Positions 30,152 to 53,516 of a stretch of 64,000 bases of DNA are shown piece by piece. The notes beneath the pieces were generated by a model that was given only the letters and a program-made list of their open reading frames with translations, was not told the DNA's origin and searched no databases. Origin of the DNA: Candidatus Omnitrophota bacterium (GTDB lineage: Bacteria; Omnitrophota; Gorgyraeia; Zapsychrales; JBDRMG01); assembly GCA_043812495.1 (NCBI GenBank), contig JBDRMG010000016.1, positions 66,137 to 130,136 of the forward strand, in the 5' to 3' direction. The translations under genes and the position numbers were made by a program. Numbering within the stretch: the first letter of the stretch is position 1; every line of letters starts with the position of its first letter.

Positions 30152-30250
30152 TGGAGAGTCTCTTGAATCGAGAGAAAATAATTCACTAAGAAAAACGGCT
30201 TTCAAAAAGAAACGCCTGCATAATCAGAGTCAACCTCTCCTGTTGATCAA

Positions 30251-35486: not shown

Positions 35487-35522
35487 GCTCTTCTCCAAAT
35501 CTTGTTTTAGGTAATATCATAC

Positions 35523-39575: not shown

Positions 39576-40763
39576 TTAACAATATTTTCTGTATAGCGAA
39601 AGCGTCGATTCGGCCACCATCTTTCGCGTAAAACCTTTTTCGACCATCATGCGGCCTGTTGAGCCCAAGCGCTCGCAAAGGGCGTCATCCGCAAATAGCT
39701 GCATGATCCTAGAGGAGAGTTCGCCGAAGTCTTTAACCGGTATGACAAAGCCGTTAATGCTATCGCGAATAATTTCGGGCATTCCGCCTGTGTTGGTCAC
39801 GATCATCGGCCGGGCCGAAGCCATGGATTCAAGCATGGTCAAACCAAACGGCTCAAAGCTGGACGACGGATAAACACAAACGCGGCACGCCGCATACAGC
39901 TGCGGCATTTCATCTAAGGCATAGATATCGATCAAGACATTTTTCTTTAGCTTAAAGATGTCGATCAGATGGACCATGTAGGCAATATCCTTCTGCTGCG
40001 TTTGCCCCCAATCGATAATATTCTTTGTTCCGGCCAAGACCAGCATGGTCTCCGGGAATTTTTGCCGAATCACATTCAAGGCCTTAATGCTCACATCGCA
40101 TCCTTTGGCTAGCCCCATACGCGCGGGATGAAAAATAACTTTTTTCCCGATTAGCTGGGGATATTTTCTGAAAACGGACTTCGGTCGCACGCTGGGATGG
40201 AATTTCCTTTCGTCAATACCATGATGCACGGTTGTGACTTTTCGGTGAGAATAGCCGACTCCCAGAATCTCTCGCTCGATAAAATGACTGACGGCAATAA
40301 TGTGGGTCCACTTGATATTCATCGTGCAATCTAAAAACAGGTCATCGTCCCAGACATTATGGGCTGTCAAGAAAAGCGGAATGCCCTTTTTTGTGGCCAC
40401 TTCTTCCAACAGGCTCGCATGCACTTTGCTAAAATAATGCATATTGTGCGCATGCAAAATGTCGGGCTTATTTTTATCCACAAATTTCACAAATAGTTCT
40501 CGAACTTCTTTTTCCAGGCCGTCTAATCCCCGGCGATACAGCCAGTTTAAATCCATCAGAGGCGTCCGCTGGATTTTAACGCCCATGTACGTGTCATCGA
40601 CCGGAGATCCTTCGAAGCTACCGGTCAGCAGGCTCACCTTGTGCCCCATTTTGACAAAGGCCGGCAGCAGGATGGTTAAATGCGTTTCCACCCCGCCGAT
40701 GATCGGGGGAAAACCCCAGTGCAAGTGGGCAATTTTTAGTTTGTTTTTTGTGGACTTGGACAT
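39576..40763 (-). CDS. Glycosyltransferase family 4 (GT-B fold).
   Basis: EPFGLTMLESMASARPMIVTNTGGMPEII (E-x7-E region) and an N-terminal GT4 domain. Confidence 0.8.
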   Translation of the reverse strand: MSKSTKNKLKIAHLHWGFPPIIGGVETHLTILLPAFVKMGHKVSLLTGSFEGSPVDDTYMGVKIQRTPLMDLNWLYRRGLDGLEKEVRELFVKFVDKNKPDILHAHNMHYFSKVHASLLEEVATKKGIPLFLTAHNVWDDDLFLDCTMNIKWTHIIAVSHFIEREILGVGYSHRKVTTVHHGIDERKFHPSVRPKSVFRKYPQLIGKKVIFHPARMGLAKGCDVSIKALNVIRQKFPETMLVLAGTKNIIDWGQTQQKDIAYMVHLIDIFKLKKNVLIDIYALDEMPQLYAACRVCVYPSSSFEPFGLTMLESMASARPMIVTNTGGMPEIIRDSINGFVIPVKDFGELSSRIMQLFADDALCERLGSTGRMMVEKGFTRKMVAESTLSLYRKYC

Positions 40764-40770
40764 AGGTCTT

Positions 40771-43101
40771 TTATAGATAATAATCTTGTCGTGTCTTCAG
40801 AGGCTTTTCGCGCGTGAAAGTGAATTCCTTGTTTGCCTTTAAGATTCGGTTTTTGCCGAAAATATCAATTTTCTCTTTCCTCTTGCCCTTCGATACCATC
40901 TTGATGCGCACCTTATTATTTCTGGCATCAACGTGAAACAGGCTATTGCGCCAGACAAACGAACAGGTGATTCGGCGCCAGGCATGCGGCATGCGCGGAT
41001 CAACCGACAACATATTGTGACGTACCCGTACGCCTGCAAAACCATTCACAACGACCTGCCAGGTTCCTCCTAAGGAAGCCGCATGAATCCCTTCGTGAGT
41101 ATTGCCGTGCAAATTGCTGATATCGGCCCTTAAAGCCACATTGAAAAACTGATAGGCGCGGCTCAAGGCCCCGGCCTCAATGGCCATCAAGGCATGAATG
41201 GCGGGGCTCAGCGAAGATTTATGCAGAGTCCGGTTGGCATAATAAAAGAAATTGCTCTCTTTTGTTTTGTCGTTAAATTCGTCCCCAAAAAGATAAAGAA
41301 GCATGAGGACATCCGCCTGTTTGACAAATTGCGTCTTATTGTAATCTTTGACCTTAATGCCGTCGGGCAGAAGCGGAATGAAGTTTTCGTCAAAATTCAC
41401 GATTTCGATGTATCGCTTCTTGAAGAATCCGTCAAACTGCTCGATCACCTTGTCTTCCCTGATATTGAGATGAATCTTCTGAGCCATCGTTTTGAAGCGA
41501 TTGATTTCGGCGGGAACCAAATTGATGTCTTTGGTAAGACGCACAAATTCCTTGGGATTGAATTTCTTGAATTCAAAATACAATTTGTTGGCGATCAGCA
41601 AATTCCATCTGGCCATCCAATTCGTAAAGGCATTATTGCTGACATGCTCGTGGAATTCATCCGGACCGATGACATCTTTGATTTCGTATTGATTCTTTTT
41701 GTTGCGCTCTAAGCGGCTCGCCCAGAATCGCGCGGTTTCAAAAATTATTTCGCAACCGTATCGGCTCATAAAATCGATATCGGAGGTGATGGTAAAATAC
41801 TGATTGCAGGCAAAGGCAATATCAGCAGTGATATGCTGCTCTTGCTTGTTGGTCTTAATTTGAATAATGGTACCGTCTAAGTTTCTGGCCCACGTGGGTG
41901 TTTCTTCTTCGCCCGTACCGGCCGACTCCCAGGGAAACATCGCACCTTTATACCCTCTCTTTTTAGCGATGGCCCGTGCCTGCTCAAGCCGTTGGTATCT
42001 ATACAAAAGCATATTCTTGGCCACTTGCGGGCAAACATACGCATAAAAAGGAACCATAAAAATTTCCGCATCCCAGAAAATATGGCCCCGGTAACCCTCG
42101 CCGCTTAAGGTCCTCGCGCCAATACTTGAGAACCCTTCATCCACGCGAGCGCAGATCAGCATATGGTAGATATTGAATCGAAGGTTCTTCTGGATGCTGG
42201 CCGTTCCTTCAATCACAACGTCGGCCACATCCCATAAGGCATGCCAGGCCTCACTATGCTTCTTAAGTAGGCTTTGGAACCCGGATTTAAAGACTTTTTG
42301 AAAATGCTTCTTGGATAAATTTTTGTTCTTTTTTAGTTCCGCGGGATCATTATCAAGAACCGAAATATAAAAAACTTTCGTAAATGTAATCGACTGACGT
42401 TTTTTAAGCTTTAGCTCAAGGATATTATCCGGCGCATAAACCTTTTGCCCGCCTCTTCTGTAGGTAAATCCGCTGCGAAAGAGAATCAGGTGTTTTTTCT
42501 CAAATGTCTGCGCGACCAGAAATCCGGAATTATCTTCCTGCCCGATTTCTTTAACGCGAAAATGCTTCTTTTGTCCTTCCGTGACCGTCCCGGCATTGAC
42601 AACGGATGTGTCAATTCCTGTATGAAGCTCGATCTCAGCCGCATCATCCAAGGGGGTTAAAACAATTTGCATCACACCGATATTCTTATCCGCCATCGAA
42701 ACAAATCGTATGGACTGATAATCATAGCGTCTTTTCTTGCTATCCACATAAACGGTGTGTCTTGTCAAAAGCCCATCGCGCATATTCAGGATGCGCTTAT
42801 GCTCCAGAACATTCATGGCTAAAATGTCCAGCTTTTCGCCATTGACGGTGAATTTGAAATTAAAAAGATTGGGCAGGTTGACCAACTCGGCCACTTGAGA
42901 TGTTATGCGGTCGTAGATACCGGCTAAGTACGTACCCGGAACTGCGCCGGGTGGGATTTCTTCCAGGACGGCGCGTACGCCCATATAGCCATTACCCAAG
43001 GAAAGTTGGCTTTCCCTGATGGCCTGCAGAGATTTATGGAAACCTTCTTCCCTGATACACCAAAGGTCTTCGTTCGTGTATTTCGCGTAAAAATCCTTCA
43101 T
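40771..43101 (-). CDS. GH65-family glycoside phosphorylase (kojibiose/trehalose/maltose phosphorylase-like).
   Basis: SLGNGYMGVRA (N-terminal beta-sandwich) and EGYRGHIFWDAEIFMVPFY (catalytic (alpha/alpha)6 region) match GH65. Confidence 0.8.
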   Translation of the reverse strand: MKDFYAKYTNEDLWCIREEGFHKSLQAIRESQLSLGNGYMGVRAVLEEIPPGAVPGTYLAGIYDRITSQVAELVNLPNLFNFKFTVNGEKLDILAMNVLEHKRILNMRDGLLTRHTVYVDSKKRRYDYQSIRFVSMADKNIGVMQIVLTPLDDAAEIELHTGIDTSVVNAGTVTEGQKKHFRVKEIGQEDNSGFLVAQTFEKKHLILFRSGFTYRRGGQKVYAPDNILELKLKKRQSITFTKVFYISVLDNDPAELKKNKNLSKKHFQKVFKSGFQSLLKKHSEAWHALWDVADVVIEGTASIQKNLRFNIYHMLICARVDEGFSSIGARTLSGEGYRGHIFWDAEIFMVPFYAYVCPQVAKNMLLYRYQRLEQARAIAKKRGYKGAMFPWESAGTGEEETPTWARNLDGTIIQIKTNKQEQHITADIAFACNQYFTITSDIDFMSRYGCEIIFETARFWASRLERNKKNQYEIKDVIGPDEFHEHVSNNAFTNWMARWNLLIANKLYFEFKKFNPKEFVRLTKDINLVPAEINRFKTMAQKIHLNIREDKVIEQFDGFFKKRYIEIVNFDENFIPLLPDGIKVKDYNKTQFVKQADVLMLLYLFGDEFNDKTKESNFFYYANRTLHKSSLSPAIHALMAIEAGALSRAYQFFNVALRADISNLHGNTHEGIHAASLGGTWQVVVNGFAGVRVRHNMLSVDPRMPHAWRRITCSFVWRNSLFHVDARNNKVRIKMVSKGKRKEKIDIFGKNRILKANKEFTFTREKPLKTRQDYYL

Positions 43102-43168
43102 GGCGGGAACATTATAGCAGAAATTCTTGGGTTTACCAAGTCAGCATATGGAAAGATGAGGAAAACCG

Positions 43169-43849
43169 TTATATGGCCACAAATAAGCTTAAGGCCTTAA
43201 AAAAGAAATACCCGGATACCGCAAGGAGAATCGCGCCGCAAAACTGTTTAATACGAATAAGCCCTGGGCCGGGCTTGGGCAGATGGACAACAATACCGCT
43301 AAAGGTGCCCACGAGAATCAGGGAGGCGCCCATCCCATAAGAAAACACAAAAAGCAGACTCACGGCGTAAATAGGGTTTTGTTTGGATGCGATATGTAAA
43401 AGCAGCGTTCCGAGAACCGGCGTCGCGCAAGGGCTAACCGCAAGCCCTGAGGCCATACCAAATAAAAGGACTGTCCACAAATTGGTCGGCTTTATTTTCT
43501 GCCGGATGTTGGCGCCGAAAGAAGACAGCGGGATAATATCAAGCAAGACCAAGCCAAAAAACACAAGAATGCAGCCGACAATGAGAGAAACGATTGGGCT
43601 GTTTTGAATCCGGCCAAAGACCTGCCCCGTCAGTGCGGCAAGAATGCCAAGGATACAATAGGTCATCGCAATTCCGAAAACATAAATCACGGAAAGCAAA
43701 AAGCCCATAAGCTTCGAGCCTTTGGTATCTATCCCACCAATATAACTCGCCGTAATAGGAATTAACGGATAAACACACGGCGTAAAGCTCACCAAGACAC
43801 CGCCCCAAAAGGCAATTATATAATCAATGAATCGACCGGTTATTTCCAT
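43169..43849 (-). CDS. ccdA: Cytochrome c biogenesis protein CcdA / DsbD-like thiol-disulfide transporter.
   Basis: Six transmembrane helices with the conserved Cys in FTPCVYPLIP and AVSPCATPVLG. Confidence 0.75.
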   Translation of the reverse strand: MEITGRFIDYIIAFWGGVLVSFTPCVYPLIPITASYIGGIDTKGSKLMGFLLSVIYVFGIAMTYCILGILAALTGQVFGRIQNSPIVSLIVGCILVFFGLVLLDIIPLSSFGANIRQKIKPTNLWTVLLFGMASGLAVSPCATPVLGTLLLHIASKQNPIYAVSLLFVFSYGMGASLILVGTFSGIVVHLPKPGPGLIRIKQFCGAILLAVSGYFFFKALSLFVAI

Positions 43850-43859
43850 TTAAATAGAT

Positions 43860-44820
43860 TTAGGATTTCTGTTGTTGGGCCAGCGCCTGGATTCTCTTGA
43901 GCATATTCGGATGTGTGCTCATCGCCTCCATCATGCGGTCACCAAGATTCAAAACCACTTTTTTATTTCGCAAATTAGCCAGTTCATAAGAATCGATGGT
44001 TCCGCTGCGATCCAAATCAATCTGGGCTAAGTCGCGTATTTCATTCATGGCCTGCGAGGGGTCATTTAAGAAAAATGCCTTAAAACCTTCGGCTTCTTTA
44101 ATAACACCTTTACCCATACGTGCTGAACCGTAAACGAGCTTATAGAGCGCTGTGGCTAAACTGGAAGGTTTATTGCCCAAGGCAATGGAGCCCCGATCAG
44201 CAAAGTATTCTCGAATGCGAGAAGCATAAAGAACCAATAAGTTGGTAATAAAATAGAAAACGAGAGCCACAAGCCCGATCAAGGCCGCTTGCCCGCGGTC
44301 TCTCCGGCCTCCGCCAAAAAAGAGTAAATGCCACGCCAGACGATACATAATAATCGGAATCACGGATAAAAGCGTGATGGTCAATACATCACGGTTTTTT
44401 ATATGGCTGAGCTCGTGGCCGATCACCGCCTTCAATTCATCTTCATCCAGAAGCTGCATAATGCCCTGGGTCACACAAACACGACCATCAGATATCGAAC
44501 GGCCAAAAGCAAAGGCATTGGGAATCGGCATTTGCGCGATGCAGACTCTGGGCATGGGAATGCGCGCTTTTGCGGCCTGGTCTTCGACAATTTTATAAAG
44601 AGATGGGTTCTCTTCTCTTTTGATATAGCGAACGCGCATCGACCATTCGATCAATTTCGGTCCCACCATATATTGAATGAACATAAACCCAAAAGCAATA
44701 AGCAGATAAATGTAAAAATTCCCAATGCCCATATAGGTCCCGACCGCAACCATCGCGGCATAGACAATGGCAAACAAAAGTGTCACTAAAAGCATCATTC
44801 TTAAATGTAGGAAAAACATT
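43860..44820 (-). CDS. htpX: M48-family zinc metalloprotease, HtpX homologue, with a C-terminal EF-hand-like loop.
   Basis: HELSHIKNRD is the HExxH motif. Four transmembrane helices. DLDRSGTIDSYE fits the 12-residue EF-hand loop consensus. The true start is the ATG at 44820 (Shine-Dalgarno GAGAGGAG); the longer ORF reads into a repeat. Confidence 0.8.
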
Positions 44821-44825
44821 TTTTG

Positions 44826-44910
44826 TCTCCTCTCAATGAGGCCCGCACTTATGGACCCCGCTGCCCCGCATTTTGCGGGGCAAGAAGCGGGGAAACATAA
44901 CTGTGCGGCC
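44826..44910. repeat. C-type hairpin repeat immediately upstream of the htpX start. The outer stem is GCCCGCACTTATGG / CATAACTGTGCGGCC and the inner stem is CCCCGC..GCGGGG.
   Basis: Read directly. The GCGGGCCTCATTGAGAGGAG tail resembles the tail of the A module. Confidence 0.5.
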
Positions 44911-44973
44911 GAATTAAACAAATTCAACTATAATTCTTTTCCTTTATCAAGTGAACTCAATAGTTCTAACAAA

Positions 44974-46527
44974 TTACTTGAACAATTTCAACTGTTGTTT
45001 TTCTCTTTGTTTTTTCGAAGGTCCTTTTTGACTTTGTCCTTTTTCATAAGCCTTCAGTTTTTCCTCAATATCCGAAAGAAATGCGGAAGCCTGATTTTCA
45101 TAGTGCTGGCCAAAAATAAAGCGCCTTTTAGCCCGCGCAAGGTAAAGCCGTTTTTTCGCGCGCGTCATCCCGACATAAAAAAGACGTCTCTCTTCCTCTT
45201 CGCTTGAGGAAAATCCTTCGATGGCCAAAGGCAAAAGATTCTTCTCGCAGCCCACCATAAACACAACGGGAAATTCGCACCCTTTCGCCGCATGAAGAGT
45301 TAAAAGCGAAATGCTTTCGCTTTTTTCTTTATACTGATCTTCGAATTCCTGCGGATCATCAAAATACTCATAATGCTCAGAAAAAGGAATTCCGCTTCGC
45401 GCAAAAGCTTCTTGTAGGTATTTCTTTTGCGCATGAAGGCGATACAAGACGGCAATGTCGCCAAAAGAATAGCGAGCTTCATGTTCATACGAAACGCGCT
45501 TGGAATCCTGCGAAAACATGGCTGTCCCGCCGACCAATCGCTCAACTTGATGGACCACGTATTCCGCCTCGGCTTTATCAGTAGGCGCTTCGTAAATTGT
45601 CAGATGACCTTCTGTATATATTTTTGCTGTCAAATCCGGAATAAAGGAATTCCTCGCCTTGGACATCACCTGGCCTGAGGCCTCAAGGAGATTAGGCGCT
45701 GAGCGATAGTTTTGTGTAAGAGATAGGATGCTTGCTCCGGGAAAATCTTCTTTAAAGCTTTCAAAATAACGTACGTCCGAGCCTCGGAAGCTATAAATCG
45801 CCTGATTGGGATCTCCAATGGCGGTTAAGAAATTTTCACCTGAAACAAGCAAAGCCAAAAGCCTGTGTTGCAAAGCATTGATGTCTTGGTATTCATCGAC
45901 GAAGATATGCCGGTATTGTTGTCGAATTTTCTCACAAACGACTTTGTTGTCCTTCAAAAGCCTTAAACTTTCTAAGAGCAGATCATCAAAATCTAATAAA
46001 TTCTTACTTCTCAACAGGCGATTGAACTTGAGCGCATATTCGGACACATCCGTGAACAGAAGTTTAGTCTTTAGAGAAGAGATTTCATTCAACAGATCTT
46101 TTCTGCTGCGCTTCTTTTCATCAGGCCATAATTGTTGTCCGATTTTGTCGATGTCCTCTTTTGAGGCCATACAAAATTCTCTTGGCAAATCCGTTTGCTC
46201 AATGTGATCGCGAAGAAGTTTTAAGCAAAATGAATGAAATGTACCGACGAATATTTGTTTCAATTCTTGACCCATTGCTTGCTTAAGGCGCTCCTTCATC
46301 TCATGGGCCGCTCGATTGGTAAAAGTAATGGCTAAAATATTCTCAAATGGGGTTAATTCTCTGGCGATACGAGCGATGCGATGCGTTAAGGTATGCGTTT
46401 TTCCCGTGCCCGGACCTGCGACAATAAGAAGATGGCCCCCACGAAACTCAACCGCCTGCCATTGGGCTTCATTTATATTTTCTGGCTTTATTTTGCTTTG
46501 AGGGCTTAATTCTTTCATTTTATTCAA
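44974..46527 (-). CDS. UvrD/Rep/PcrA-family superfamily-1 DNA helicase, short form (517 aa).
   Basis: LIVAGPGTGKTHTLTHRIA (Walker A), DEYQDIN, and C-terminal UvrD_C motifs (TLHAAKGCEFPVVF, YVGMTRAKKRLYL). Confidence 0.8.
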   Translation of the reverse strand: MNKMKELSPQSKIKPENINEAQWQAVEFRGGHLLIVAGPGTGKTHTLTHRIARIARELTPFENILAITFTNRAAHEMKERLKQAMGQELKQIFVGTFHSFCLKLLRDHIEQTDLPREFCMASKEDIDKIGQQLWPDEKKRSRKDLLNEISSLKTKLLFTDVSEYALKFNRLLRSKNLLDFDDLLLESLRLLKDNKVVCEKIRQQYRHIFVDEYQDINALQHRLLALLVSGENFLTAIGDPNQAIYSFRGSDVRYFESFKEDFPGASILSLTQNYRSAPNLLEASGQVMSKARNSFIPDLTAKIYTEGHLTIYEAPTDKAEAEYVVHQVERLVGGTAMFSQDSKRVSYEHEARYSFGDIAVLYRLHAQKKYLQEAFARSGIPFSEHYEYFDDPQEFEDQYKEKSESISLLTLHAAKGCEFPVVFMVGCEKNLLPLAIEGFSSSEEEERRLFYVGMTRAKKRLYLARAKRRFIFGQHYENQASAFLSDIEEKLKAYEKGQSQKGPSKKQREKQQLKLFK

Positions 46528-47809
46528 AAAGCGTTAACTGACCTTCCGAAACATTGCGCTCTTCATTAGAGAAGATGTTAATCTTTCCGTATTCTCCGTC
46601 ATAACCGGCCGCAATATTGACTTTTCCTTCGCGCATACGCTTGATGCCTTCGGCCACAAGCGAACCGCCGGCTTTTTTGATTTCATTGATGGACGCATCC
46701 TGCAGAATAAACATTTCGTTGCCGAGCTTGGCGAGCATTTCGCCAAATGTTAATTGCACCGCTTTTGAGTTTGCTCCCATGCCTTTGGCTTCCGCAATGA
46801 TTTCCGGCAAAGGAATTAAGCTGCAAAAGACGCGGCCATTGGGTGATTTTCGACCCATGGGGTAATCCGCCAATTCTTCAACTCTGGACATAACGCCGAC
46901 CGTGACAGACTTTCCGCACTTCGGGCACAATCCTTTGCTTTGAATTGTTTCTTCGGGGTTCATGCGCATCTGGCAATCACGATGCCCGTCATAATGATAT
47001 TTACCTTCTTCCGGAAAGAATTCGACCGTTCCTTCCAGTCCTTTATGATCGGCATCTTTGAGGGCATGATAAATTCCTGCATAGGAAAAATCCGTATCAT
47101 ACAGTGTGGATTCGCGCCCAAGCTTCTCGGCGGAATGCGCATCGGAATTGGAGACAAGGACATATCTGTCTAATTGGCTTAAGCGCCAATTCATAGCAGG
47201 ATCGGATGAAAGACCGGTTTCGAGAGCAAAAATATGTTCGCAAAGATCTTCGAAGCATTCTTCAATCGAATTAAATCCACTTTTGGATCCCAACACGGAG
47301 AACCACGGCGTCCAGATATGAGCCGGAATAAGATAGCTTAGGGGATCGGATTCCAAAACAATTTCCAATAAATGCTTCGCATCCAAACCCAGAATAGGCC
47401 GGCCGTCTGAATAGATATTCCCGATCCCCTGAAGTTTTTTCTGAATTTTTTCCGCAGCTTCAAAGCTAGGCGCGAAGATCACATTATGGACTTTGCGGAC
47501 CTTATCATTCTTTTTATAAATATTGGATATTTCGGCCGAAAGAATAAAACGCACTTCCTTTTGGCAGGCCAACGGGCATTCCCTTTGGCTTAAGGAATCA
47601 TATTCGTTTTTTAGCTTAAAAAATCCTTCTTGGGCACACTCAAGCTGTGTCTTCAGTTCTTCTAACCAGCCGGGGTGCGTAAAGTCGGCAGTCCCTACGA
47701 CCTGCATTCCTTTGAGTTGCGCCCAAAGATTTAAGCGGGCTAAATTTAAATTTTTACTTGTCGCGCGGGAAAAACGGGAATGGAGATGAGTGTCGGCGTA
47801 GAATTTCAT
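46520..47809 (-). CDS. PHP-domain nuclease of the TIGR00375 / endonuclease Q-like family, with a C4 zinc finger and a C-terminal helix-hairpin-helix.
   Basis: The N-terminus ADTHLHSRFSRATS is a PHP metal-binding motif. CPKCGK is a zinc finger. There are further His/Asp ligands. The 3' end overlaps the helicase start by 8 nt. Confidence 0.55.
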   Translation of the reverse strand: MKFYADTHLHSRFSRATSKNLNLARLNLWAQLKGMQVVGTADFTHPGWLEELKTQLECAQEGFFKLKNEYDSLSQRECPLACQKEVRFILSAEISNIYKKNDKVRKVHNVIFAPSFEAAEKIQKKLQGIGNIYSDGRPILGLDAKHLLEIVLESDPLSYLIPAHIWTPWFSVLGSKSGFNSIEECFEDLCEHIFALETGLSSDPAMNWRLSQLDRYVLVSNSDAHSAEKLGRESTLYDTDFSYAGIYHALKDADHKGLEGTVEFFPEEGKYHYDGHRDCQMRMNPEETIQSKGLCPKCGKSVTVGVMSRVEELADYPMGRKSPNGRVFCSLIPLPEIIAEAKGMGANSKAVQLTFGEMLAKLGNEMFILQDASINEIKKAGGSLVAEGIKRMREGKVNIAAGYDGEYGKINIFSNEERNVSEGQLTLFE

Positions 47810-47838
47810 ACAATTTTCTGATTCACAAGAAAGCCGCT

Positions 47839-49617
47839 TTAGTCAAAACAGCAAATCCTATTTTTGCCTTCTCGCTTGGCCTGGTAAAGCGACTGGTCTG
47901 CCTTCATGACAAAATCATGCCGATCCATTTGGCCGGCGTAGCGGGCCGCACCGATACTGATAGTAATTTTTCGTCTTAAGTTAAGACCCTCAATAGATTT
48001 CTTTACTTTTTCTGCAACTAGTTTTGCTTGCGGAATATCTGTTTCAGGTAAAATAGCCGCAAACTCATCACCCGCATAACGGCAAAGGATATCAACATTA
48101 CGCATACTTCGCTTCATCATCTGACTTGCGCGAGAAAGCAGAATATCACCTTCCGGATGGCCATACTGATCGTTATACTCTTTAAAACCATCGATATCGA
48201 TCATCAACAGACACAAAGGCCTCGGGTAACGTCTTGAGCGCTCAATCTCCTGCTGAAGCGTCTTAATAAACTGACGATGATTAAAAAGACTTGTCAGGGA
48301 ATCCGTTGTTGAGAGGAATTCCAATTCGCGATAATAATAGGCATTTTCAATCGCAATGGCGGCCTGACGGACAATGCTGCAGAGTATTTTTAAATCCACT
48401 TCTGTAAAAATAGGATCCTCTTTGCTGTCCTTATCCGACACATTGACAACACCCACAAGCTTCGCATGCAGTTTAATGGGAACGCACAAGAACGATTTGC
48501 CCTTATAACTGGATCGATTCTTCCGCGCGATCAGCAGTTCTGATTCAATATCATTGACTAATAGGGGCTCTCCTTTCTGGGCCACAATGCCAGCAATAGG
48601 ATCCCCGACTTTTATTCTTGTTTCTTTGATGATCTTTTTTTTCAAACCCTTTGCGCCCTTAATCAAAAGCTCCTGGGAATCATCATCGACAAGCATCAAA
48701 GAACACTTTTGCGCTTCCAATATTTGAGTTGCCTTTTCAATGACAAAGTCTACCAGCTGATTAAGTTCAAGAATCGAGCTGATCTTCTGGTCAATGTTTA
48801 AAACTTGTTCCATTTTCTTTCTTTCAAATTCTAAATCTTCCTGCAACACCTTGAGTCTACTTTCTATTTCTTTTCGTTCTGTAATATCCTGAAATATTTC
48901 AAGAACGGCATTTTTGCCCTCATAAAGCATGCCGGTGTGTGTAACGAGAAATGTCCGTCCTCCCAGGACGTCCTCCGTTTCAATGGACGCCACTTCGCCG
49001 ATTTTGATATTTTTTCTAAGCGGGCACAAGAGGCATTGGGCTTTATCGTCTTTGTAAAGATCCCAGCATCTTTTTCCAATGGCCTTTTTTCCGTAAATCT
49101 TCTTTAATTTCTCACACAAGAAAAGAATTTTACCCTCTTGGTCAACAATTTCCATGCCGAAAGGAATCGTATTGATCAGGGTCTGGTTAAACTCGCTAAT
49201 GCGCCGAATGGCTTCTTCGGCTTGTTTTTGTTGGGTGATGTCGCGGATAACTCCTTCTGTTCCGATGATGCGGCCGGTTATATTTTTAACAAGATTACTG
49301 GTGACGGAGAGAATGATTTCGCGGCCATCTTTTCTTTTGTTGACAACTTCATAATCTTTAACAAATCCTTTCTTCATAATTTCCCCTAAGAATAACTCGC
49401 GGTCATTGGGATTGCTATAGAGTTCTTGAGCAAGATTCAAGCCAAGAACCTCTTTCTTGCTTTTATAACCCATAATTTCCACGTAGGCCTGATTGATAAA
49501 AATAAGATTGCCCAAGACATCGGCCATATAAACGCCGCTTTTTAAGGATTCAAGAAGGTTCTGAAAGGGTCTTTCTGCTTCTCTTTGAATTTTCTGAGGT
49601 TTTCTGGATTCGATCAT
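47839..49617 (-). CDS. PAS-PAS-GAF-GGDEF diguanylate cyclase with an AGDEF active-site variant and an RxxD I-site.
   Basis: RNVDILCRYAGDEFAAIL is the GGDEF-domain core. Upstream GAF and two PAS-like segments. Confidence 0.8.
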   Translation of the reverse strand: MIESRKPQKIQREAERPFQNLLESLKSGVYMADVLGNLIFINQAYVEIMGYKSKKEVLGLNLAQELYSNPNDRELFLGEIMKKGFVKDYEVVNKRKDGREIILSVTSNLVKNITGRIIGTEGVIRDITQQKQAEEAIRRISEFNQTLINTIPFGMEIVDQEGKILFLCEKLKKIYGKKAIGKRCWDLYKDDKAQCLLCPLRKNIKIGEVASIETEDVLGGRTFLVTHTGMLYEGKNAVLEIFQDITERKEIESRLKVLQEDLEFERKKMEQVLNIDQKISSILELNQLVDFVIEKATQILEAQKCSLMLVDDDSQELLIKGAKGLKKKIIKETRIKVGDPIAGIVAQKGEPLLVNDIESELLIARKNRSSYKGKSFLCVPIKLHAKLVGVVNVSDKDSKEDPIFTEVDLKILCSIVRQAAIAIENAYYYRELEFLSTTDSLTSLFNHRQFIKTLQQEIERSRRYPRPLCLLMIDIDGFKEYNDQYGHPEGDILLSRASQMMKRSMRNVDILCRYAGDEFAAILPETDIPQAKLVAEKVKKSIEGLNLRRKITISIGAARYAGQMDRHDFVMKADQSLYQAKREGKNRICCFD

Positions 49618-49815
49618 TTTCTGACCTTAGTAAAAGGTGAATTTTCAACCCTCCCGTAGGGTAAAATTTATTCTACTCCTAAAAAGATTTTAAGACAAGG
49701 CTCGAATTGGAGGGTGTTCTTAGAGAAAATGGGAGAAAACGCCGGAGAAATTCCAAGGATGGTACGCTTGGGCGAAATGCTCAATGAATCGCTTCAAATG
49801 ATCAAAAGAATGGCT

Positions 49816-52800
49816 CTATGATGACTTCGGCTGATCCTTTGCTTGAGCGTTGGGATCAATCGATCCGGCAGCCATAGCCTCATAGATCTTCCATTTCTCA
49901 TTGACATCTTTCTGAGCCAGCTCAAGAAGGCGTTTGGCTTCTTCGGGTTTGCTCTGGGTGAGCATCTTGAAGCGCGTTTCTTTATACGCGTATTCCTCAA
50001 AAGAAATCTTCGGCTTCTGTGAATCCAGAATAAACGGATTTTTACCCTGCTTGGCCAAATCAGGATTATAACGAAACAGGGGCCAGTAACCGCTCGCTAC
50101 AGCTGCTTTCTGTTCGTCGGTCGCTGTGCGCATATTAATCCCGTGGGCAATACAATGGCTGTAGGCAATGATCAGGGAAGGTCCGTTATAGCTTTCCGCT
50201 TCAAGAATGGTCTTGAGGGCATGGCTATCATTGGCGCCCAAGGCAATTTGCCCCACATAAACGGCTCCGTAAGTCATGATCATGCGAGCCAAATCTTTTT
50301 TGGCTAAAGGTTTTCCGCTGGCCGCGAACTTTGCAACGGCCCCACGCGGTGTAGCTTTTGACGCCTGTCCGCCCGTATTGGAATAAACTTCCGTATCCAA
50401 AACCAAAACATTGACGTTTCGGCCGGAGGCCAGAACGTGGTCAAGCCCTCCGTAACCGATATCGTAGGCCCAGCCGTCCCCACCGATAATCCAAACACTT
50501 TTCTTCACCAGCATATCGGCGAGGCTCAAAAGCTGCTTGGCTTCAGGCGATCTATCCTTTTCCAATTTCTTTTTGAGTTCTTCAACGCATTTTCTTTGTT
50601 CGAAAATAGCGGGTTCGTCTTTTTGATCTGCGCTCACAAGAGCCTTGGCAAGATCTTTGCCGATTTTTGAAGACAGCTTCTTGACGAGTTCGCAGGCGTA
50701 TTCGGCTTGTTTATCAATCGTTAAGCGGAAACCAAAGCCAAATTCCGCGTTATCCTCAAAAAGTGAGTTGGACCAGGCCGGTCCCCGGCCTTCACTGTTC
50801 ACGGCATAGGGAGTGGTCGGCAAGTTACCACCATAAATGGAAGAACAACCTGTGGCATTAGCAATTACCATACGGTCGCCGAATAACTGAGTCACCATTT
50901 TAATATACGGAGTTTCCCCGCATCCGGCGCAAGCGCCTGAGAATTCAAAAAGCGGCCTTAGCGCCTCAGCTTCTCTTAAAACGTCGGGTTTAATTAATGT
51001 TCGATCCAAATCAGGAATCGACAGGAAAAATTCCCAATTTTTGGATTCTTGTTCGCGCAAAGAAATCTGCGGATGCATATTGATCGCTTTTTTTGACGCA
51101 TCCGTCTTACTTTTCGCAGGACAAATATGAACACAAGCCCCGCATCCCGTGCAATCCTCAGGAGCGACCTGAATCGTCGCTTTCTTACCCTGCCAGGCTT
51201 TATTCTTAGGATCCGCTGACTTAAATGTCTTGGGTGCTTTGTCCAAAAACTTCGGATCATAAATTTTCATGCGGATAACCGCATGAGGGCAGACCGCATT
51301 GCATTTTCCGCACTGAATACAAATGTCCGGTTCCCAGACGGGAATCTCAAGGGCAACATTTCTTTTTTCCCATTGTGTTGTGGCGGTAGGATAGGTTCCG
51401 TCTTCGGGCATGGCGCTCACGGGAAGCTCATCGCCTTTATTGGCAATGATTTTGGCTGTCACCTGCTGAACAAAATCAGATGCTTCTTTGGAAACGACAG
51501 GCGGTCTTTGAATGCAACTTGTGACTTTTTCGGGAACCTGGACCTCATGTAAATTGGCTAATGTCTGATCAACGGCATTATAGTTCTTCTGGACAATTTC
51601 ATCACCCTTGCTGCCATACGTTTTCTTGATAGAATTCTTGATCGCCTGGATGGCTTCGTCCTTAGGCAAAACTCCCGAAATCACAAAGAAACAGGTCTGC
51701 ATGATCGTATTAATCCGCACCCCCATCCCTGTATCTTGGGCTACCTTGTACGCATCGATAACATAAAATCTTAATTTCTTCTTAATAATCGCCTCTTGGA
51801 TATCGCAAGGGACCTTGTCCCAAACTTCGTCTTTAGAAAAAGGACTGTTGAGAAGAAAAACGCCCTTTTCTTTAATCTTTTCTAAAACATTATATTTTTC
51901 AAGGAAGACAAACTGATGACAACCGACAAAATTGGCCTCGGTCACCAGATACGTCGAATGAATGGGATGAGGTCCAAAACGCAAGTGAGACACCGTGACA
52001 GAACCGGCCTTCTTGGAATCATAGACAAAATACCCTTGCGCAAAGTTTCCTGTCCCCTCACCAATAATCTTAATAGAGTTTTTATTGGCACCGACCGTCC
52101 CATCAGAACCTAATCCAAAAAAGATGGCTTGCACGCCCTGAGGATCTTCTGTCGTAAAGCTGGGATCATAGGCAAGACTTGTCTGGGTCACATCGTCATT
52201 GATGCCGACCGTAAAATGGTTTTTGGGTTTTTCTTTCTTGAGCTCATCAAAAACGCCTTTGATCATGGCCGGCGTAAATTCTTTGGAGGATAGACCATAG
52301 CGCCCTCCGACAACAACGGGAACTTTTTTAAATCGTTGACTGGCTTCTCCTTCATAAAGAGCATCCACGACATCAAGATAAAGGGGTTCACCTGAGCTGC
52401 CTGGTTCTTTCGTGCGATCCAAAACACCGATCATCTTAACGGTCGACGGTAAAGCATCCATAAAATGCGTGATAGAAAACGGACGATAAAGCCGGACTTT
52501 CAGGACGCCAACTTTCTCGCCTTTTTTGATGAGGTGATCGACGGTTTCCTGACAAGCTTCGGCACCGGATGCCATAATCACGATAACGCACTCAGCGTCT
52601 TTTGATCCATAATACTCAAACAATTTATATTGGCGTCCGACCTGTTTCGCAAACTGATCCATGACCTTCTGGACGATGGCAGGGCAGGCTTCATAATATT
52701 TATTGACTGTTTCGCGCGCTTGAAAGAAAACATCAGGATTTTGCGCTGTTCCGCGTAAAACCGGATGATCCGAAGACAAGGCCCGCTTGCGATGAGCAAA

Positions 52801-53400
52801 AACAAGATTGTCATCAATCATGATCCGGATATCTTCATCGGATAATTGCTCTATCTTTTGTACTTCATGGGAAGAGCGGAAACCATCAAAGAAATGCAAA
52901 AAAGGAATGCGCGACTCTAAGGTCACGGCATGAGCGATGAGCGCGAAATCCATCACTTCTTGAATCGAGGCTGAGGCCAAAAACCCAAAACCTGTCTGGC
53001 GCGCGGCCATCACATCCGTATGGTCACCAAAGATGGACAAAGCCTGACAAGCCACAGATCGGGCGGACACATGAAAAACAGTGGATGTCAATTCACCGGC
53101 GATTTTATACATATTGGGGATCATCAGAAGAAGACCCTGGGAAGCAGTGAAGGTTGTCGTAAGCGCCCCTGTTTGGGCAGCCCCGTGGATTGCTCCCGAA
53201 GCACCCCCTTCGCTTTGCATCTCTTGGACAAAAGGTACTGTGCCCCAAAGATTGGTTCGACCTTGCGCTGACCATGCATCGGCCCACTCCCCCATGGAAG
53301 AAGAAGGAGTGATAGGGTAAATCGCGATGACTTCGCTGACCTTATGCGCTACATAGGCCGCTGCTTCATTGCCATCGATGGTAACTTTTTTTCTTTCCAT
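49816..53400 (-). CDS. nifJ: Pyruvate:ferredoxin (flavodoxin) oxidoreductase, single-chain PFOR.
   Basis: About 1194 aa. GNEAAAYVAHKVSEVIAIYPITPSS, two 4Fe-4S ferredoxin motifs (CIQCGKCNAVCPH and CTGCGACVHICP), and a C-terminal TPP domain with GGDGWAYDIG. Confidence 0.9.
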   Translation of the reverse strand: MERKKVTIDGNEAAAYVAHKVSEVIAIYPITPSSSMGEWADAWSAQGRTNLWGTVPFVQEMQSEGGASGAIHGAAQTGALTTTFTASQGLLLMIPNMYKIAGELTSTVFHVSARSVACQALSIFGDHTDVMAARQTGFGFLASASIQEVMDFALIAHAVTLESRIPFLHFFDGFRSSHEVQKIEQLSDEDIRIMIDDNLVFAHRKRALSSDHPVLRGTAQNPDVFFQARETVNKYYEACPAIVQKVMDQFAKQVGRQYKLFEYYGSKDAECVIVIMASGAEACQETVDHLIKKGEKVGVLKVRLYRPFSITHFMDALPSTVKMIGVLDRTKEPGSSGEPLYLDVVDALYEGEASQRFKKVPVVVGGRYGLSSKEFTPAMIKGVFDELKKEKPKNHFTVGINDDVTQTSLAYDPSFTTEDPQGVQAIFFGLGSDGTVGANKNSIKIIGEGTGNFAQGYFVYDSKKAGSVTVSHLRFGPHPIHSTYLVTEANFVGCHQFVFLEKYNVLEKIKEKGVFLLNSPFSKDEVWDKVPCDIQEAIIKKKLRFYVIDAYKVAQDTGMGVRINTIMQTCFFVISGVLPKDEAIQAIKNSIKKTYGSKGDEIVQKNYNAVDQTLANLHEVQVPEKVTSCIQRPPVVSKEASDFVQQVTAKIIANKGDELPVSAMPEDGTYPTATTQWEKRNVALEIPVWEPDICIQCGKCNAVCPHAVIRMKIYDPKFLDKAPKTFKSADPKNKAWQGKKATIQVAPEDCTGCGACVHICPAKSKTDASKKAINMHPQISLREQESKNWEFFLSIPDLDRTLIKPDVLREAEALRPLFEFSGACAGCGETPYIKMVTQLFGDRMVIANATGCSSIYGGNLPTTPYAVNSEGRGPAWSNSLFEDNAEFGFGFRLTIDKQAEYACELVKKLSSKIGKDLAKALVSADQKDEPAIFEQRKCVEELKKKLEKDRSPEAKQLLSLADMLVKKSVWIIGGDGWAYDIGYGGLDHVLASGRNVNVLVLDTEVYSNTGGQASKATPRGAVAKFAASGKPLAKKDLARMIMTYGAVYVGQIALGANDSHALKTILEAESYNGPSLIIAYSHCIAHGINMRTATDEQKAAVASGYWPLFRYNPDLAKQGKNPFILDSQKPKISFEEYAYKETRFKMLTQSKPEEAKRLLELAQKDVNEKWKIYEAMAAGSIDPNAQAKDQPKSS

Positions 53401-53516
53401 TTCAGACCTTTCTTTGGTTATTGAATCCTGGTCATTTTGAGTCAAAGAGTTTTTTCTATAAACGAACGAAGGAACAATTCAATGATGAATTTTGAATCGA
53501 TGGGGCGGGAGAAATT

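Follow-up and report, generated by a model that had tools for sequence, protein, structure and literature searches.

A split EndoQ and UvrD-like helicase pair in an Omnitrophota genome, a probable DNA-repair machine that is fused in most other bacteria

The window, a 64,000-nucleotide stretch of genomic DNA from an Omnitrophota bacterium, carries adjacent genes for an EndoQ-family endonuclease and a UvrD/PcrA-like helicase. Their products are probably the two halves of one DNA-repair machine, which in most other bacteria is a single protein of ~1,100 aa. Because EndoQ and the helicase are joined as one protein in those bacteria, the two proteins of the window almost certainly work together. 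No genomic evidence for a dedicated functional partnership is stronger than a fusion of the genes, and sequence comparison strongly supports such a partnership between EndoQ and the helicase.

The EndoQ gene

The gene at 46520..47809 (reverse strand; 429 aa) is, judged from alignment, a full-length EndoQ homologue with an intact active site, identified from the ORF call, the PfuEndoQ structure 5zb8, and TIGR00375. Its layout comprises a PHP catalytic domain, a Zn-binding domain, a C-terminal helical domain, and a C-terminal tail. The match to PfuEndoQ 5zb8 pairs query residues 5-412 with chain residues 5-382 at 34% identity (E=7.3e-45). TIGR00375, an NCBIfam 'hypoth_equivalog' model and the sole NCBIfam match of this PHP protein, aligns over profile positions 2-374 of 374 (E=5e-53); its score of 180.8 bits falls below the curated cut-off of 326.6 bits, which suggests that the substrate specificity could differ from that of the characterised enzymes. 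The protein classifies as EndoQ, as the preliminary description had proposed, and neither with histidinol phosphatases nor with PHP proteins of the Pol X type. This assignment is upheld by the PfuEndoQ match and by TIGR00375, both full-length although the latter is under its cut-off, and by the invariant residues described below. Close homologues carry the NCBI name 'endonuclease Q family protein', and PF27218 (MJ0043_C) is precomputed for homologues. A Pfam profile search of the window protein at E<=0.01, with a model set that excludes PF27218, returned no match. The C-terminal HhH region suggested earlier was not recovered by any Pfam model at that threshold, and the C-terminal part of PfuEndoQ is described merely as a helical domain (PMC5961232).

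The PHP catalytic part, placed by alignment to PfuEndoQ, spans 47015..47809 (reverse strand; ~residues 1-265, boundary approximate) and opens with MKFYADTHLHS, in which H8 and H10 form the expected N-terminal HxH motif. The metal ligands of PfuEndoQ are His8, His10, Glu76, His84, His139, and Asp193 (and His195) (PMC5961232), and these align with H8, H10, E93, H108, H164, D223, and H225 of the window protein. Three residues of the PfuEndoQ lesion pocket, His139, Gly169, and Ser171, exclude T and A (PMC8307549); their counterparts are H164, G199, and S201. The nine catalytic and pocket residues are invariant across 82 sequences.

The Zn-binding motif, H276-x2-C279 ... C295-P-K-C298 (46916..46984, reverse strand; alignment A1 to PfuEndoQ), includes the CPKCGK element noticed previously, which is present at residues 295-300. 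PfuEndoQ has a C4 site formed by Cys249/252/268/271 (PMC5961232). Three of these cysteines are kept as C279, C295, and C298, whereas the first position, Cys249 in PfuEndoQ, is His276. A His occupies this position in 81 of 82 clade members, and His276 is a plausible Zn ligand.

The gene junction

The two genes meet at 46516..46527 (reverse strand), where the EndoQ stop codon TAA (46520-46522) is followed after a 1-nt spacer by a helicase ATG (46516-46518); in the junction sequence TAAaATG, the ATG at 46518 begins one base past the stop. An alternative TTG (46525-46527) would give an overlap of 8 nt. Both ORFs lie where the preliminary description had placed them, as the ORF list confirms, and its 8-nt overlap stands if translation begins at the TTG at 46527 but not if it begins at the ATG at 46518. 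Public record P0121 (514 aa, 100% identical, annotated 'ATP-dependent helicase') uses the ATG. The genes are tightly juxtaposed under either start codon. Promoter-like sites in the scan occur at chance level. Terminator-like sites number 18, against 8.1 expected from shuffling, and none marks operon boundaries.

The helicase gene and its missing 2B domain

The gene at 44974..46518 (reverse strand) encodes 514 aa from the ATG, or 517 aa from the TTG at 46527. On sequence criteria, the product of 44974-46518/46527 is an intact helicase of the SF1A UvrD/PcrA-like type, with neither a 2B nor a C-terminal domain. It matches the Pfam models UvrD-helicase (2e-67), UvrD_C, and AAA_19. Motif I (Walker A), AGPGTGKT, lies at 46396..46419 (reverse strand; residues 34-41 in the 514-aa numbering) and aligns with AGAGSGKT of PcrA; G35-T41 are invariant in alignment A2 (30 sequences). 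Motif II (Walker B), DEYQD, lies at 45883..45897 (reverse strand; residues 208-212) and is invariant in A2 and A3. The series AGPGTGKT, TFTN, DEYQD, GDPNQAIYSFRG, NYRS, TLHAAKGCEF, and RRLFYVGMTRAK lines up with PcrA. Motifs Q, I, Ia, II, III, IV, V, and VI are all present, with most positions invariant in A2 and A3. From SF1A membership, the protein would be expected to translocate on ssDNA and unwind DNA in the 3'->5' direction.

The alignment with PcrA 1pjr (E=4.7e-72) spans PcrA residues 11-379 and 543-655 and leaves PcrA residues 380-542, which form 2B, without a counterpart. The protein therefore departs from the four-subdomain 1A/1B/2A/2B architecture and has a linker of ~20 residues in place of 2B. 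This short acidic linker, SEHYEYFDDPQEFEDQYKEKSES (45316..45381, reverse strand; ~residues 380-401), occupies the site of the ~160-aa 2B domain of canonical UvrD/PcrA. The spacing from motif IV to motif V is 137 residues, compared with 278 in PcrA, and other Omnitrophota relatives have a block of ~160-180 aa at the linker site (alignment A3). The preliminary description had rightly called the helicase shorter than canonical UvrD; it is short because 2B (~160 aa) and the C-terminal domain are absent.

The helicase reaches no equivalog-level score for PcrA (374.6 vs a cut-off of 911.2), UvrD (about 295.7-314 vs 1144), or Rep (305.7 vs 951) in NCBIfam. A Foldseek search with the AlphaFold model gave UvrD1, UvrD, PcrA, and Rep as top matches (E 1e-31 to 1e-27), consistent with a UvrD-like predicted fold. 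Because the model is only moderate (pLDDT 74.8, pTM 0.52; pLDDT <50 at residues 383-399), it was used for fold assignment and the disordered linker and not for domain geometry.

Fusion, adjacency and distribution

The survey of the pairing took in 81 related loci spread over more than 15 bacterial phyla, including Omnitrophota, KSB1, Planctomycetota, Latescibacterota, Chloroflexota, Myxococcota, Actinomycetota, Desulfobacterota, Clostridia, Bacteroidales, CPR, and others. EndoQ and helicase form one fused ORF in 61 loci and adjacent genes in 10; they are unlinked in nine, and one locus ends at a contig end. The pairing, fused or adjacent, thus recurs in 71 of the 81 loci, far beyond chance, in line with the dedicated helicase partner proposed in the preliminary description. 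Its conservation reaches far past related genomes and is also seen in the sequence library, in which 130 of the 150 best representatives (50% identity) have at least 900 aa with an N-terminal EndoQ (aligned to residues 1-428). Since the pair is fused in most other carriers, the window holds a minority, split form of a widespread fusion. Nine loci have EndoQ without a neighbouring helicase, and the nuclease can evidently act alone. Searches for EndoQ recovered 3,787 representative clusters at E<=1e-3, and species-level genome hits exceeded 600. Across loci, the identity of one module varies together with that of the other (Spearman 0.42, p=5e-4).

It could be argued that an ordinary housekeeping UvrD/PcrA lies beside EndoQ by coincidence, given that the best curated-family matches of the helicase are PcrA, UvrD, and Rep and that its public annotation is simply 'ATP-dependent helicase'. 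This explanation is highly improbable and is effectively refuted by the single fused ORF seen at 61 of 81 loci and among the majority of library representatives. The helicase is also far under every equivalog cut-off, with 374.6 bits where PcrA requires 911.2, and lacks both 2B and the PcrA/UvrD C-terminal domain. It shares up to 53-58% identity with the fused helicase domains, compared with 34-44% with PcrA, and a clade-specific basic tail with QLxLF is common to the window and fused helicases. The stop and start codons are at most 1 nt apart or overlap. Assembly or frameshift artefacts are an implausible source of the fused ORFs, which come from 61 independent genomes including complete chromosomes (Sorangium sp., Desulfonema magnum).

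The split was also considered as a recent nonsense or frameshift lesion of a fused gene, that is, as a pseudogene. This idea was rejected because EndoQ homologues have 419-437 aa in all but two of the 120 closest matches listed, and because the 2B-less helicases (~500-530 aa) retain every motif plus their own conserved C-terminal tail.

EndoQ itself is an established enzyme, and work from 2017 probably already recorded the fusion; the fused proteins are possibly, on our assumption, 'family 3' of Shiraishi 2017. No description of the EndoQ-helicase pairing was found in the literature searched, whose coverage excludes the 2017 B. pumilus EndoQ paper. The literature searched, including EndoQ work from 2021 onward, likewise yielded no biochemical or genetic data on a helicase-linked EndoQ. 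Three observations go beyond the preliminary description: the two-gene form as a split of a widespread fusion, the loss of 2B, and the clamp-like motifs.

Genomic context and the defence alternative

The locus has a chromosomal, housekeeping context. The neighbouring genes encode GT4, GH65, DsbD_TM, an M48 peptidase, a PAS-GAF-GGDEF protein, and PFOR. Local synteny is conserved within Omnitrophota in the order DsbD_TM, a ~600-aa gene, EndoQ, and helicase. An all-against-all comparison of flanking ORFs from 82 loci found no third gene in common beyond close relatives.

A nuclease paired with a UvrD-like helicase is also the architecture of systems such as Gabija. The pair could accordingly be an anti-phage or anti-foreign-DNA system. 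EndoQ would then nick invading DNA with uracil or non-canonical bases, which the helicase would either unwind or pass on to nucleases. PADLOC models of GajB do match the helicase (best 1.6e-85), and the 52-67% identity of EndoQ across very distant phyla may indicate horizontal transfer. However, PADLOC matched only these generic GajB helicase models; EndoQ has no PADLOC match, and there is no GajA-like partner. The helicase scores 374.6 bits with PcrA and about 295.7-314 with UvrD compared with 285.8 with GajB; solved structures give 4.7e-72 for PcrA and 6e-18 for GajB, and Foldseek gives 1e-31 and 6e-13, respectively. Because PcrA/UvrD models and structures outscore GajB, the GajB matches reflect generic UvrD-like similarity. 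The housekeeping flanks and the synteny kept within Omnitrophota also speak against defence, as does the lack of a conserved defence or mobile-element neighbour across 81 loci. No relatives were found in 2.9 million viral contigs, and a search of 72,556 plasmids gave only one distant stand-alone match. Clamp-binding-like motifs, described below, point instead toward host replisome and repair. The defence role that the preliminary description had kept in view is disfavoured and appears decidedly improbable.

Clamp-binding-like motifs

Both proteins of the window end in a peptide that resembles a binding motif for the beta sliding clamp. The EndoQ pentapeptide QLTLF (46526..46540, reverse strand; residues 424-428) and the helicase pentapeptide QLKLF (44980..44994, reverse strand; residues 509-513) each lie one residue before the C-terminus. 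The termini read QLTLF-E and QLKLF-K, both close to the beta-clamp-binding consensus, which is reportedly QL[S/D]LF and is attributed to Dalrymple et al. in 2001. QLTLF-like peptides are conserved at the EndoQ end or the fusion junction, but 31 of 81 loci lack the Gln, and the majority of these have only the trailing LF left. In the helicase, a K/R-rich tail precedes QLKLF, Q509 and F513 are invariant, and L512 is nearly invariant (A2). Of the 61 complete C-termini of EndoQ-linked helicases, 54 have the terminal motif, compared with 0.23% of background windows. In archaea, EndoQ uses a C-terminal PIP box to bind PCNA, which stimulates the enzyme, and earlier work had pointed out a clamp motif in EndoQ homologues from bacteria (PMC4858679). 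The repair reading gains support from QLxLF on both proteins, with the motif being short and the binding putative.

One clamp-binding-like motif on each module is also what a clamp-associated replication-fork factor might have. Rather than excising lesions, such a factor might take out misincorporated dU, dI, or ribonucleotides close behind the fork, process Okazaki-fragment nicks, or remove obstacles, and its nuclease specificity would then be unlike that of archaeal EndoQ. In four Desulfobacterota loci, the fused gene is within ~5 kb of dnaN and gyrB, and the altered Zn site and sub-cut-off TIGR00375 score suggest that specificity may have diverged. Conversely, the dnaN linkage is limited to these four loci of one related group. 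The equivalents of the T- and A-excluding residues H139, G169, and S171 are invariant, which argues for unchanged recognition of dU, dI, and AP sites. The fork reading overlaps largely with repair, and sequence alone hardly separates the two; it is considered unlikely.

A proposed repair mechanism

In the repair reading favoured here, the EndoQ half would recognise a base that is flipped out and either deaminated (dU, dI) or missing (AP site), and would break the phosphodiester bond directly on its 5' side. The nick would have a 3'-OH on one side and, on the other, a 5'-phosphate to which the lesion is still attached. The SF1A helicase half would be recruited to the nick by its EndoQ partner and by the beta sliding clamp, whose dimer offers two pockets for the QLxLF-like peptides at each protein's end. 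Moving 3'->5' along the undamaged strand, the helicase would displace the strand with the lesion in front of a polymerase that is bound to the clamp and extends the 3'-OH. A flap nuclease or exonuclease would remove the displaced strand, and ligase would close the nick. We infer the nicking specificity, helicase polarity, clamp binding, and downstream repair steps; the choice of loading strand for the helicase is purely conjectural.

The 2B domain is autoinhibitory in Rep and UvrD. With 2B and the C-terminal domain lost, the motor would no longer regulate itself but would rely on EndoQ and the clamp. The Omnitrophota and Planctomycetota helicases are a natural counterpart of engineered Rep-delta-2B and would be of use in testing ideas about 2B autoinhibition in SF1A motors.

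A broader proposal is offered tentatively, with doubt slightly outweighing confidence. Across more than 15 phyla, EndoQ and a dedicated UvrD-like motor, mostly fused and split in Omnitrophota, may constitute a self-contained, clamp-tethered nick-and-unwind excision machine. This would be a glycosylase-independent pathway for deaminated or abasic DNA beside BER, NER, and MMR. Its Omnitrophota/Planctomycetota form would have a 2B-less, constitutively de-repressed SF1A helicase controlled by the nuclease partner and the clamp.

The steps after the EndoQ nick are an acknowledged gap, and published repair models already invoke a helicase without naming one (PMC4357722, PMC8438529). Genomes name it by fusing it to EndoQ in the majority of bacterial carriers, and the question can now be put to experiment with a defined pair of proteins or with a single fused one. 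Should the clamp motifs prove functional, the system would be a bacterial parallel to the archaeal EndoQ-PCNA partnership. The spread of EndoQ also corrects the published picture of 'a limited number of bacteria'.

Comparison with known systems

Archaeal EndoQ (PfuEndoQ, TkoEndoQ; PDB 5zb8, 7k30-7k33) shares full-length homology, 34% identity, and a three-part layout with the window EndoQ, as well as identical metal ligands and lesion-pocket residues. Each also carries a peptide for clamp interaction at its very C-terminal end, which is a PIP box in the archaeal enzymes and a putative one, QLxLF, in the window EndoQ. The archaeal enzymes are stand-alone, without a fused or adjacent helicase, whereas the window EndoQ is paired. 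The Zn site is C4 in the former and H-C-C-C in the latter, which also has extra segments at residues ~67-83 and ~94-102.

Bacillus-type EndoQ (B. pumilus EndoQ and its B. subtilis homologue), which we take to be 'family 2' of Shiraishi 2017, is also bacterial and carries the PGAP name 'endonuclease Q family protein'. Its nicking of dU, dI, and AP sites has been shown experimentally (cited in PMC5961232, PMC6202378). Its similarity to the window EndoQ is ~30% identity over residues 160-410 only. It is a stand-alone protein of ~390 aa, with an adjoining NUDIX hydrolase gene and no helicase nearby (Brevibacillus locus L082).

UvrD, PcrA, and Rep share the helicase motifs and the 1A/1B/2A core with the window helicase and are its best sequence and fold matches. 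These enzymes unwind from nicks made by a partner nuclease, which is MutH/MutL for mismatch repair, UvrC for nucleotide excision repair, and RepC/RepD for rolling-circle replication. Unlike them, the window helicase has no 2B or Tudor-like C-terminal domain and instead has a basic tail and a clamp-like motif.

Gabija (GajA-GajB) likewise combines a nuclease with a UvrD-like helicase of ~500 aa, and GajB HMMs match the window helicase, although this similarity is much weaker than that to UvrD/PcrA. GajA is an OLD-family ATPase-TOPRIM nuclease, whereas the window nuclease is PHP/EndoQ and has no PADLOC family. Next to the pair lie genes for a PAS-GAF-GGDEF protein and an M48 peptidase, and, unlike nuclease-helicase defence systems, the pair lies outside a defence-island or mobile context.

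In the fused EndoQ-UvrD proteins of other bacteria (~1,050-1,250 aa), both modules are orthologous to the window pair (EndoQ 52-67%, helicase up to 53-58% identity). The order is the same, with EndoQ N-terminal, and QLxLF-like peptides occur at the EndoQ end and the helicase C-terminus. The window pair differs in being two genes from which the low-complexity linker (~50-100 aa) has gone. Most fused proteins retain a full or reduced 2B, with a motif IV-to-V spacing of 186-297 compared with 137 in the window.

Identity of the nuclease

The preliminary description had proposed a PHP nuclease resembling endonuclease Q (EndoQ), and this identity is borne out by full-length matches to TIGR00375 and to P. 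furiosus EndoQ (PfuEndoQ), together with an invariant active site and pocket. TIGR00375 is the sole NCBIfam match of the protein (180.8 bits, under the curated cut-off of 326.6 bits). PfuEndoQ, the characterised archaeal reference, is the only match of solved structure and aligns end to end (E=7.3e-45). In the EndoQ alignment (A1), the PfuEndoQ metal ligands H8, H10, E76, H84, H139, D193, and H195 correspond to H8, H10, E93, H108, H164, D223, and H225 of the window protein. The pocket residues H139, G169, and S171 of PfuEndoQ, reported to exclude T and A, correspond to H164, G199, and S201 (residue roles from PMC5961232; PMC8307549). All of these metal-ligand and pocket residues are invariant across 82 clade members. 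The nearest homologues, at 66-73% identity, come from Omnitrophota, are about 428 aa long, and carry the names "endonuclease Q family protein" or "TIGR00375 family". A histidinol-phosphatase or a Pol X PHP identity is excluded, because neither kind of model scores.

Gene pair and junction

Both open reading frames (ORFs) of the pair were recovered on the minus strand, with the EndoQ gene upstream and the helicase gene downstream. The EndoQ gene (46520-47809) encodes 429 aa, begins with MKFYADTHLHS, and includes CPKCGK. The helicase gene may start at an ATG at 46518 (514 aa), one base past the EndoQ TAA (TAAaATG), or at a TTG at 46527 (517 aa). A public protein, P0121 ("ATP-dependent helicase [Candidatus Omnitrophota bacterium]"), is identical to the 514-aa version. 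With two start codons possible and a public protein of 514 aa, the 8-nt overlap described earlier is only one of the junctions that the sequence allows; it exists if the TTG is used and disappears with the ATG of the P0121 version. Either junction would be compatible with translational coupling.

The gene pair lies in an eight-gene run on the minus strand (39576-53445; gaps of 1-198 nt) encoding pyruvate:ferredoxin oxidoreductase (PFOR), a PAS-GAF-GGDEF protein, EndoQ, the helicase, an M48 peptidase, a DsbD_TM protein, a GH65 phosphorylase, and a GT4 glycosyltransferase. Just upstream of EndoQ, a weak terminator-like hairpin (47852-47833) overlaps the stop codon of the GGDEF gene at its 3′ end. 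Farther out are genes for PTS enzyme I (1476-3251), an ABC exporter, AsmA, and ribonucleotide reductase. Two domain fusions also occur in the window, a 521-aa Memo-like and AMMECR1 protein (28640-30205, -) and a 572-aa Na+/H+ exchanger with PTS EIIA-2 (30766-32484, -). No Pfam family matches three long ORFs at E<=1e-8: 12709-15996, 32616-35498, and 57560-58837 (all -; 1,095, 960, and 425 aa).

Fusion and distribution

One genome was scanned for each GTDB species, which gave at least 600 related loci, and the best 80 of these were compared (EndoQ identity 52-67%). They come from Omnitrophota, KSB1, Planctomycetota, Latescibacterota, Chloroflexota, Rhodothermaceae, Myxococcota, Actinomycetota, Desulfobacterota, Nitrospirota, Clostridia, Bacteroidales, Binatia, Elusimicrobiota, Fibrobacterota, and CPR, and include a complete Sorangium chromosome (Myxococcota) and Desulfonema magnum (Desulfobacterota). 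ORFs were extended around the tblastn matches in these 80 loci and locus L001 (n=81). The pairing is conserved: EndoQ runs into the helicase in a single ORF of about 1,050-1,240 codons in 61 loci (counting L051, a possible frameshift, as fused), and separate, co-directional, adjacent genes are found in 10. Cultivable bacteria with the fused gene include Saccharopolyspora, Streptomonospora, Actinoallomurus, Sorangium, Desulfonema magnum, and Clostridium sp. MCC353. The adjacent-gene loci are the Omnitrophota L001-L003, the Planctomycetales metagenome-assembled genomes L005, L007, and L009, and L014, L021, L045, and L060. In nine loci no helicase adjoins EndoQ, and one contig ends too early to tell. 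Of these nine, most are from Nitrospirota and Thermodesulfovibrionales; in L080, a helicase gene lies upstream on the opposite strand. When 1.84 billion representatives at 50% identity were searched exhaustively and independently, 3,787 matched at E<=1e-3 (1,044 at E<=1e-30). Among the best 150 of the 3,787, 130 reach 900 aa or more and carry EndoQ at residues 1-428.

Fused helicase domains, such as those of KSB1 (53% and 58%) or Latescibacterota (50% and 59%), resemble the window helicase more closely than PcrA does (34% and 44%), and EndoQ and helicase identities co-vary between loci (Spearman 0.42, p=5e-4). Judged from these similarities, the window helicase is an orthologue of the fused helicase domain and not a recruited housekeeping UvrD. 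The window pairing is thus a split fusion. Since nearly all of the 120 closest EndoQ matches listed are about 428 aa, the split is an old, stable one and no recent lesion. Three stand-alone EndoQ proteins of ~429 aa (P0056, P0085, and P0112) are publicly labelled "DNA helicase UvrD" or "DNA helicase II/PcrA", names that were probably propagated from fused EndoQ-helicase relatives.

A related Omnitrophota chromosome has the same order, DsbD_TM, a ~600-aa gene, EndoQ, and helicase. When flanking ORFs were clustered across 82 loci, no third gene proved to be conserved. Four Desulfobacterota loci (L027, L041, L065, and L073) have dnaN-like (~372 aa) and gyrB-like (~814 aa) ORFs within about 5 kb of the fused gene, in upstream flanks (e.g., L041:3698-4816 and L027:866-3304), as called by eye from N-terminal sequences and not by HMM. 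The fused gene in these four would lie near a dnaA-dnaN-recF-gyrB origin-region cluster.

A helicase without the 2B subdomain

The window helicase matches the Pfam families UvrD-helicase, UvrD_C, and AAA_19. Of the curated families, PcrA, UvrD, and Rep fit it best, each scoring far under its equivalog cut-off. The complete set of helicase motifs is intact. The protein covers PcrA residues 11-379 and 543-655; an acidic linker of about 20 residues occupies the position of the 2B subdomain, and the C-terminal domain is missing. In the AlphaFold model (pLDDT 74.8) this linker is disordered. The window helicase is therefore a trimmed SF1A motor. Motifs IV and V are 137 residues apart, within the 131-145 of split Omnitrophota and Planctomycetales genes, compared with 186-297 in other loci and 278 in PcrA. 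Among Omnitrophota relatives (alignment A3), P0146, P0198, P0234, P0193, and the fused fragment P0163 carry a ~160-180-residue block exactly at the linker site. Omnitrophota-like helicases thus comprise 2B-less forms (about 500-530 aa), 2B-containing forms (560-680 aa), and one fused fragment (P0163), and this coexistence indicates that 2B loss and gene fission are lineage-level events. One homologue, P0144, has a 23-residue insertion between motifs II and III.

A defence role, kept open by the preliminary description, would make the pair an antiviral system. Such a role was suggested for Bacillus EndoQ in a 2017 paper, as relayed by a review (PMC8307549). PADLOC does match the window pair, though only at the helicase and through GajB models that score under PcrA and UvrD models. 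Similarly, the closest Foldseek neighbours of the helicase model are UvrD1, UvrD, PcrA, and Rep (E 1e-31 to 1e-27), with GajB at only 6e-13. The clustered flanking ORFs of the 82 loci contain no defence or mobile-element genes, 2.9 million viral contigs hold no relatives, and 72,556 plasmids hold one, a distant, stand-alone EndoQ of the Bacillus type. With housekeeping neighbours, no viral and only one distant plasmid relative, and generic GajB matches, a defence role is unlikely.

Clamp-binding-like motifs and a proposed repair mechanism

The window EndoQ ends in EGQLTLFE and the helicase in KQQLKLFK. The bacterial clamp-binding consensus is QL[S/D]LF, which the terminal peptides of both modules fit. 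Q[LMIV]x[LMIF][FL] occurs in the last 12 residues of 54 of the 61 complete helicase C-termini, after a K/R-rich tail (59/61 with a relaxed pattern; background frequency 0.23% in internal 12-residue windows of the same proteins). None of the 30 Omnitrophota helicases of alignment A2 deviates at Q509 or F513, and L512 is nearly invariant. The EndoQ-module motif is C-terminal in split forms and lies at the junction before a low-complexity linker in fused forms. Its relaxed pattern is present in 50 of 81 loci, and most others retain the trailing LF only. Archaeal EndoQ was shown to bind PCNA via a PIP box at its C-terminus, with PCNA stimulating the enzyme, and the same study remarked on beta-clamp motifs in bacterial homologues (Shiraishi et al., 2016; PMC4858679). 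The EndoQ motif is thus already known. No description of the second motif, on the helicase half, was found in the literature.

With moderate confidence, the pair is read as acting in DNA repair through an EndoQ nick followed by clamp-associated helicase displacement. EndoQ would nick 5′ of dU, dI, or an AP site, a lesion specificity expected because the active site and pocket are invariant. The helicase would be brought to the nick by covalent fusion or, in the window, presumably through contact between the proteins and a clamp common to both. It would then move 3′->5′ on the intact strand, stripping off the 5′ strand that bears the lesion in front of a clamp-bound polymerase, and flap removal and ligation of the nick would follow. 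We infer the loading strand, clamp binding, and downstream repair steps. The 2B subdomain is reportedly autoinhibitory in Rep and UvrD (Rep-delta-2B studies), and by analogy its loss would fit a partner-controlled motor.

Comparison with known systems

UvrD and PcrA act in the manner proposed here with MutL/MutH, UvrC, and RepC/RepD. Published EndoQ repair schemes include a "helicase" slot (PMC4357722; PMC8438529), which the proposed EndoQ-linked motor would fill. EndoQ is a known family with active Bacillus members, and three families "based on the domain organization" are mentioned in a paper citing 2017 work (PMC5961232). Because this classification exists, the helicase fusion, visible in public annotations, has probably been seen before. 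In the accessible text of the literature, no biochemical, genetic, or comparative account was found of the EndoQ-helicase unit, its split form, the 2B-less helicase, or the paired clamp motifs. Among Omnitrophota, the window pair is an ordinary case; the family taken together is of more interest.

The zinc site of PfuEndoQ is C4, whereas the first ligand in this bacterial clade is His276 in 81 of 82 sequences (H-x2-C...C-x2-C; EndoQ residues 276-298, window 46916-46984). The Bacillus-type EndoQ on a plasmid of Brevibacillus laterosporus (NZ_CP011075.1, 494548-495729) lies within a block with spoIIM, fur, and xerD, and the 733-kb "plasmid" is chromosomal-looking in content. This enzyme is encoded by a stand-alone gene directly downstream of a NUDIX hydrolase gene, whereas the window EndoQ gene adjoins that of a helicase.
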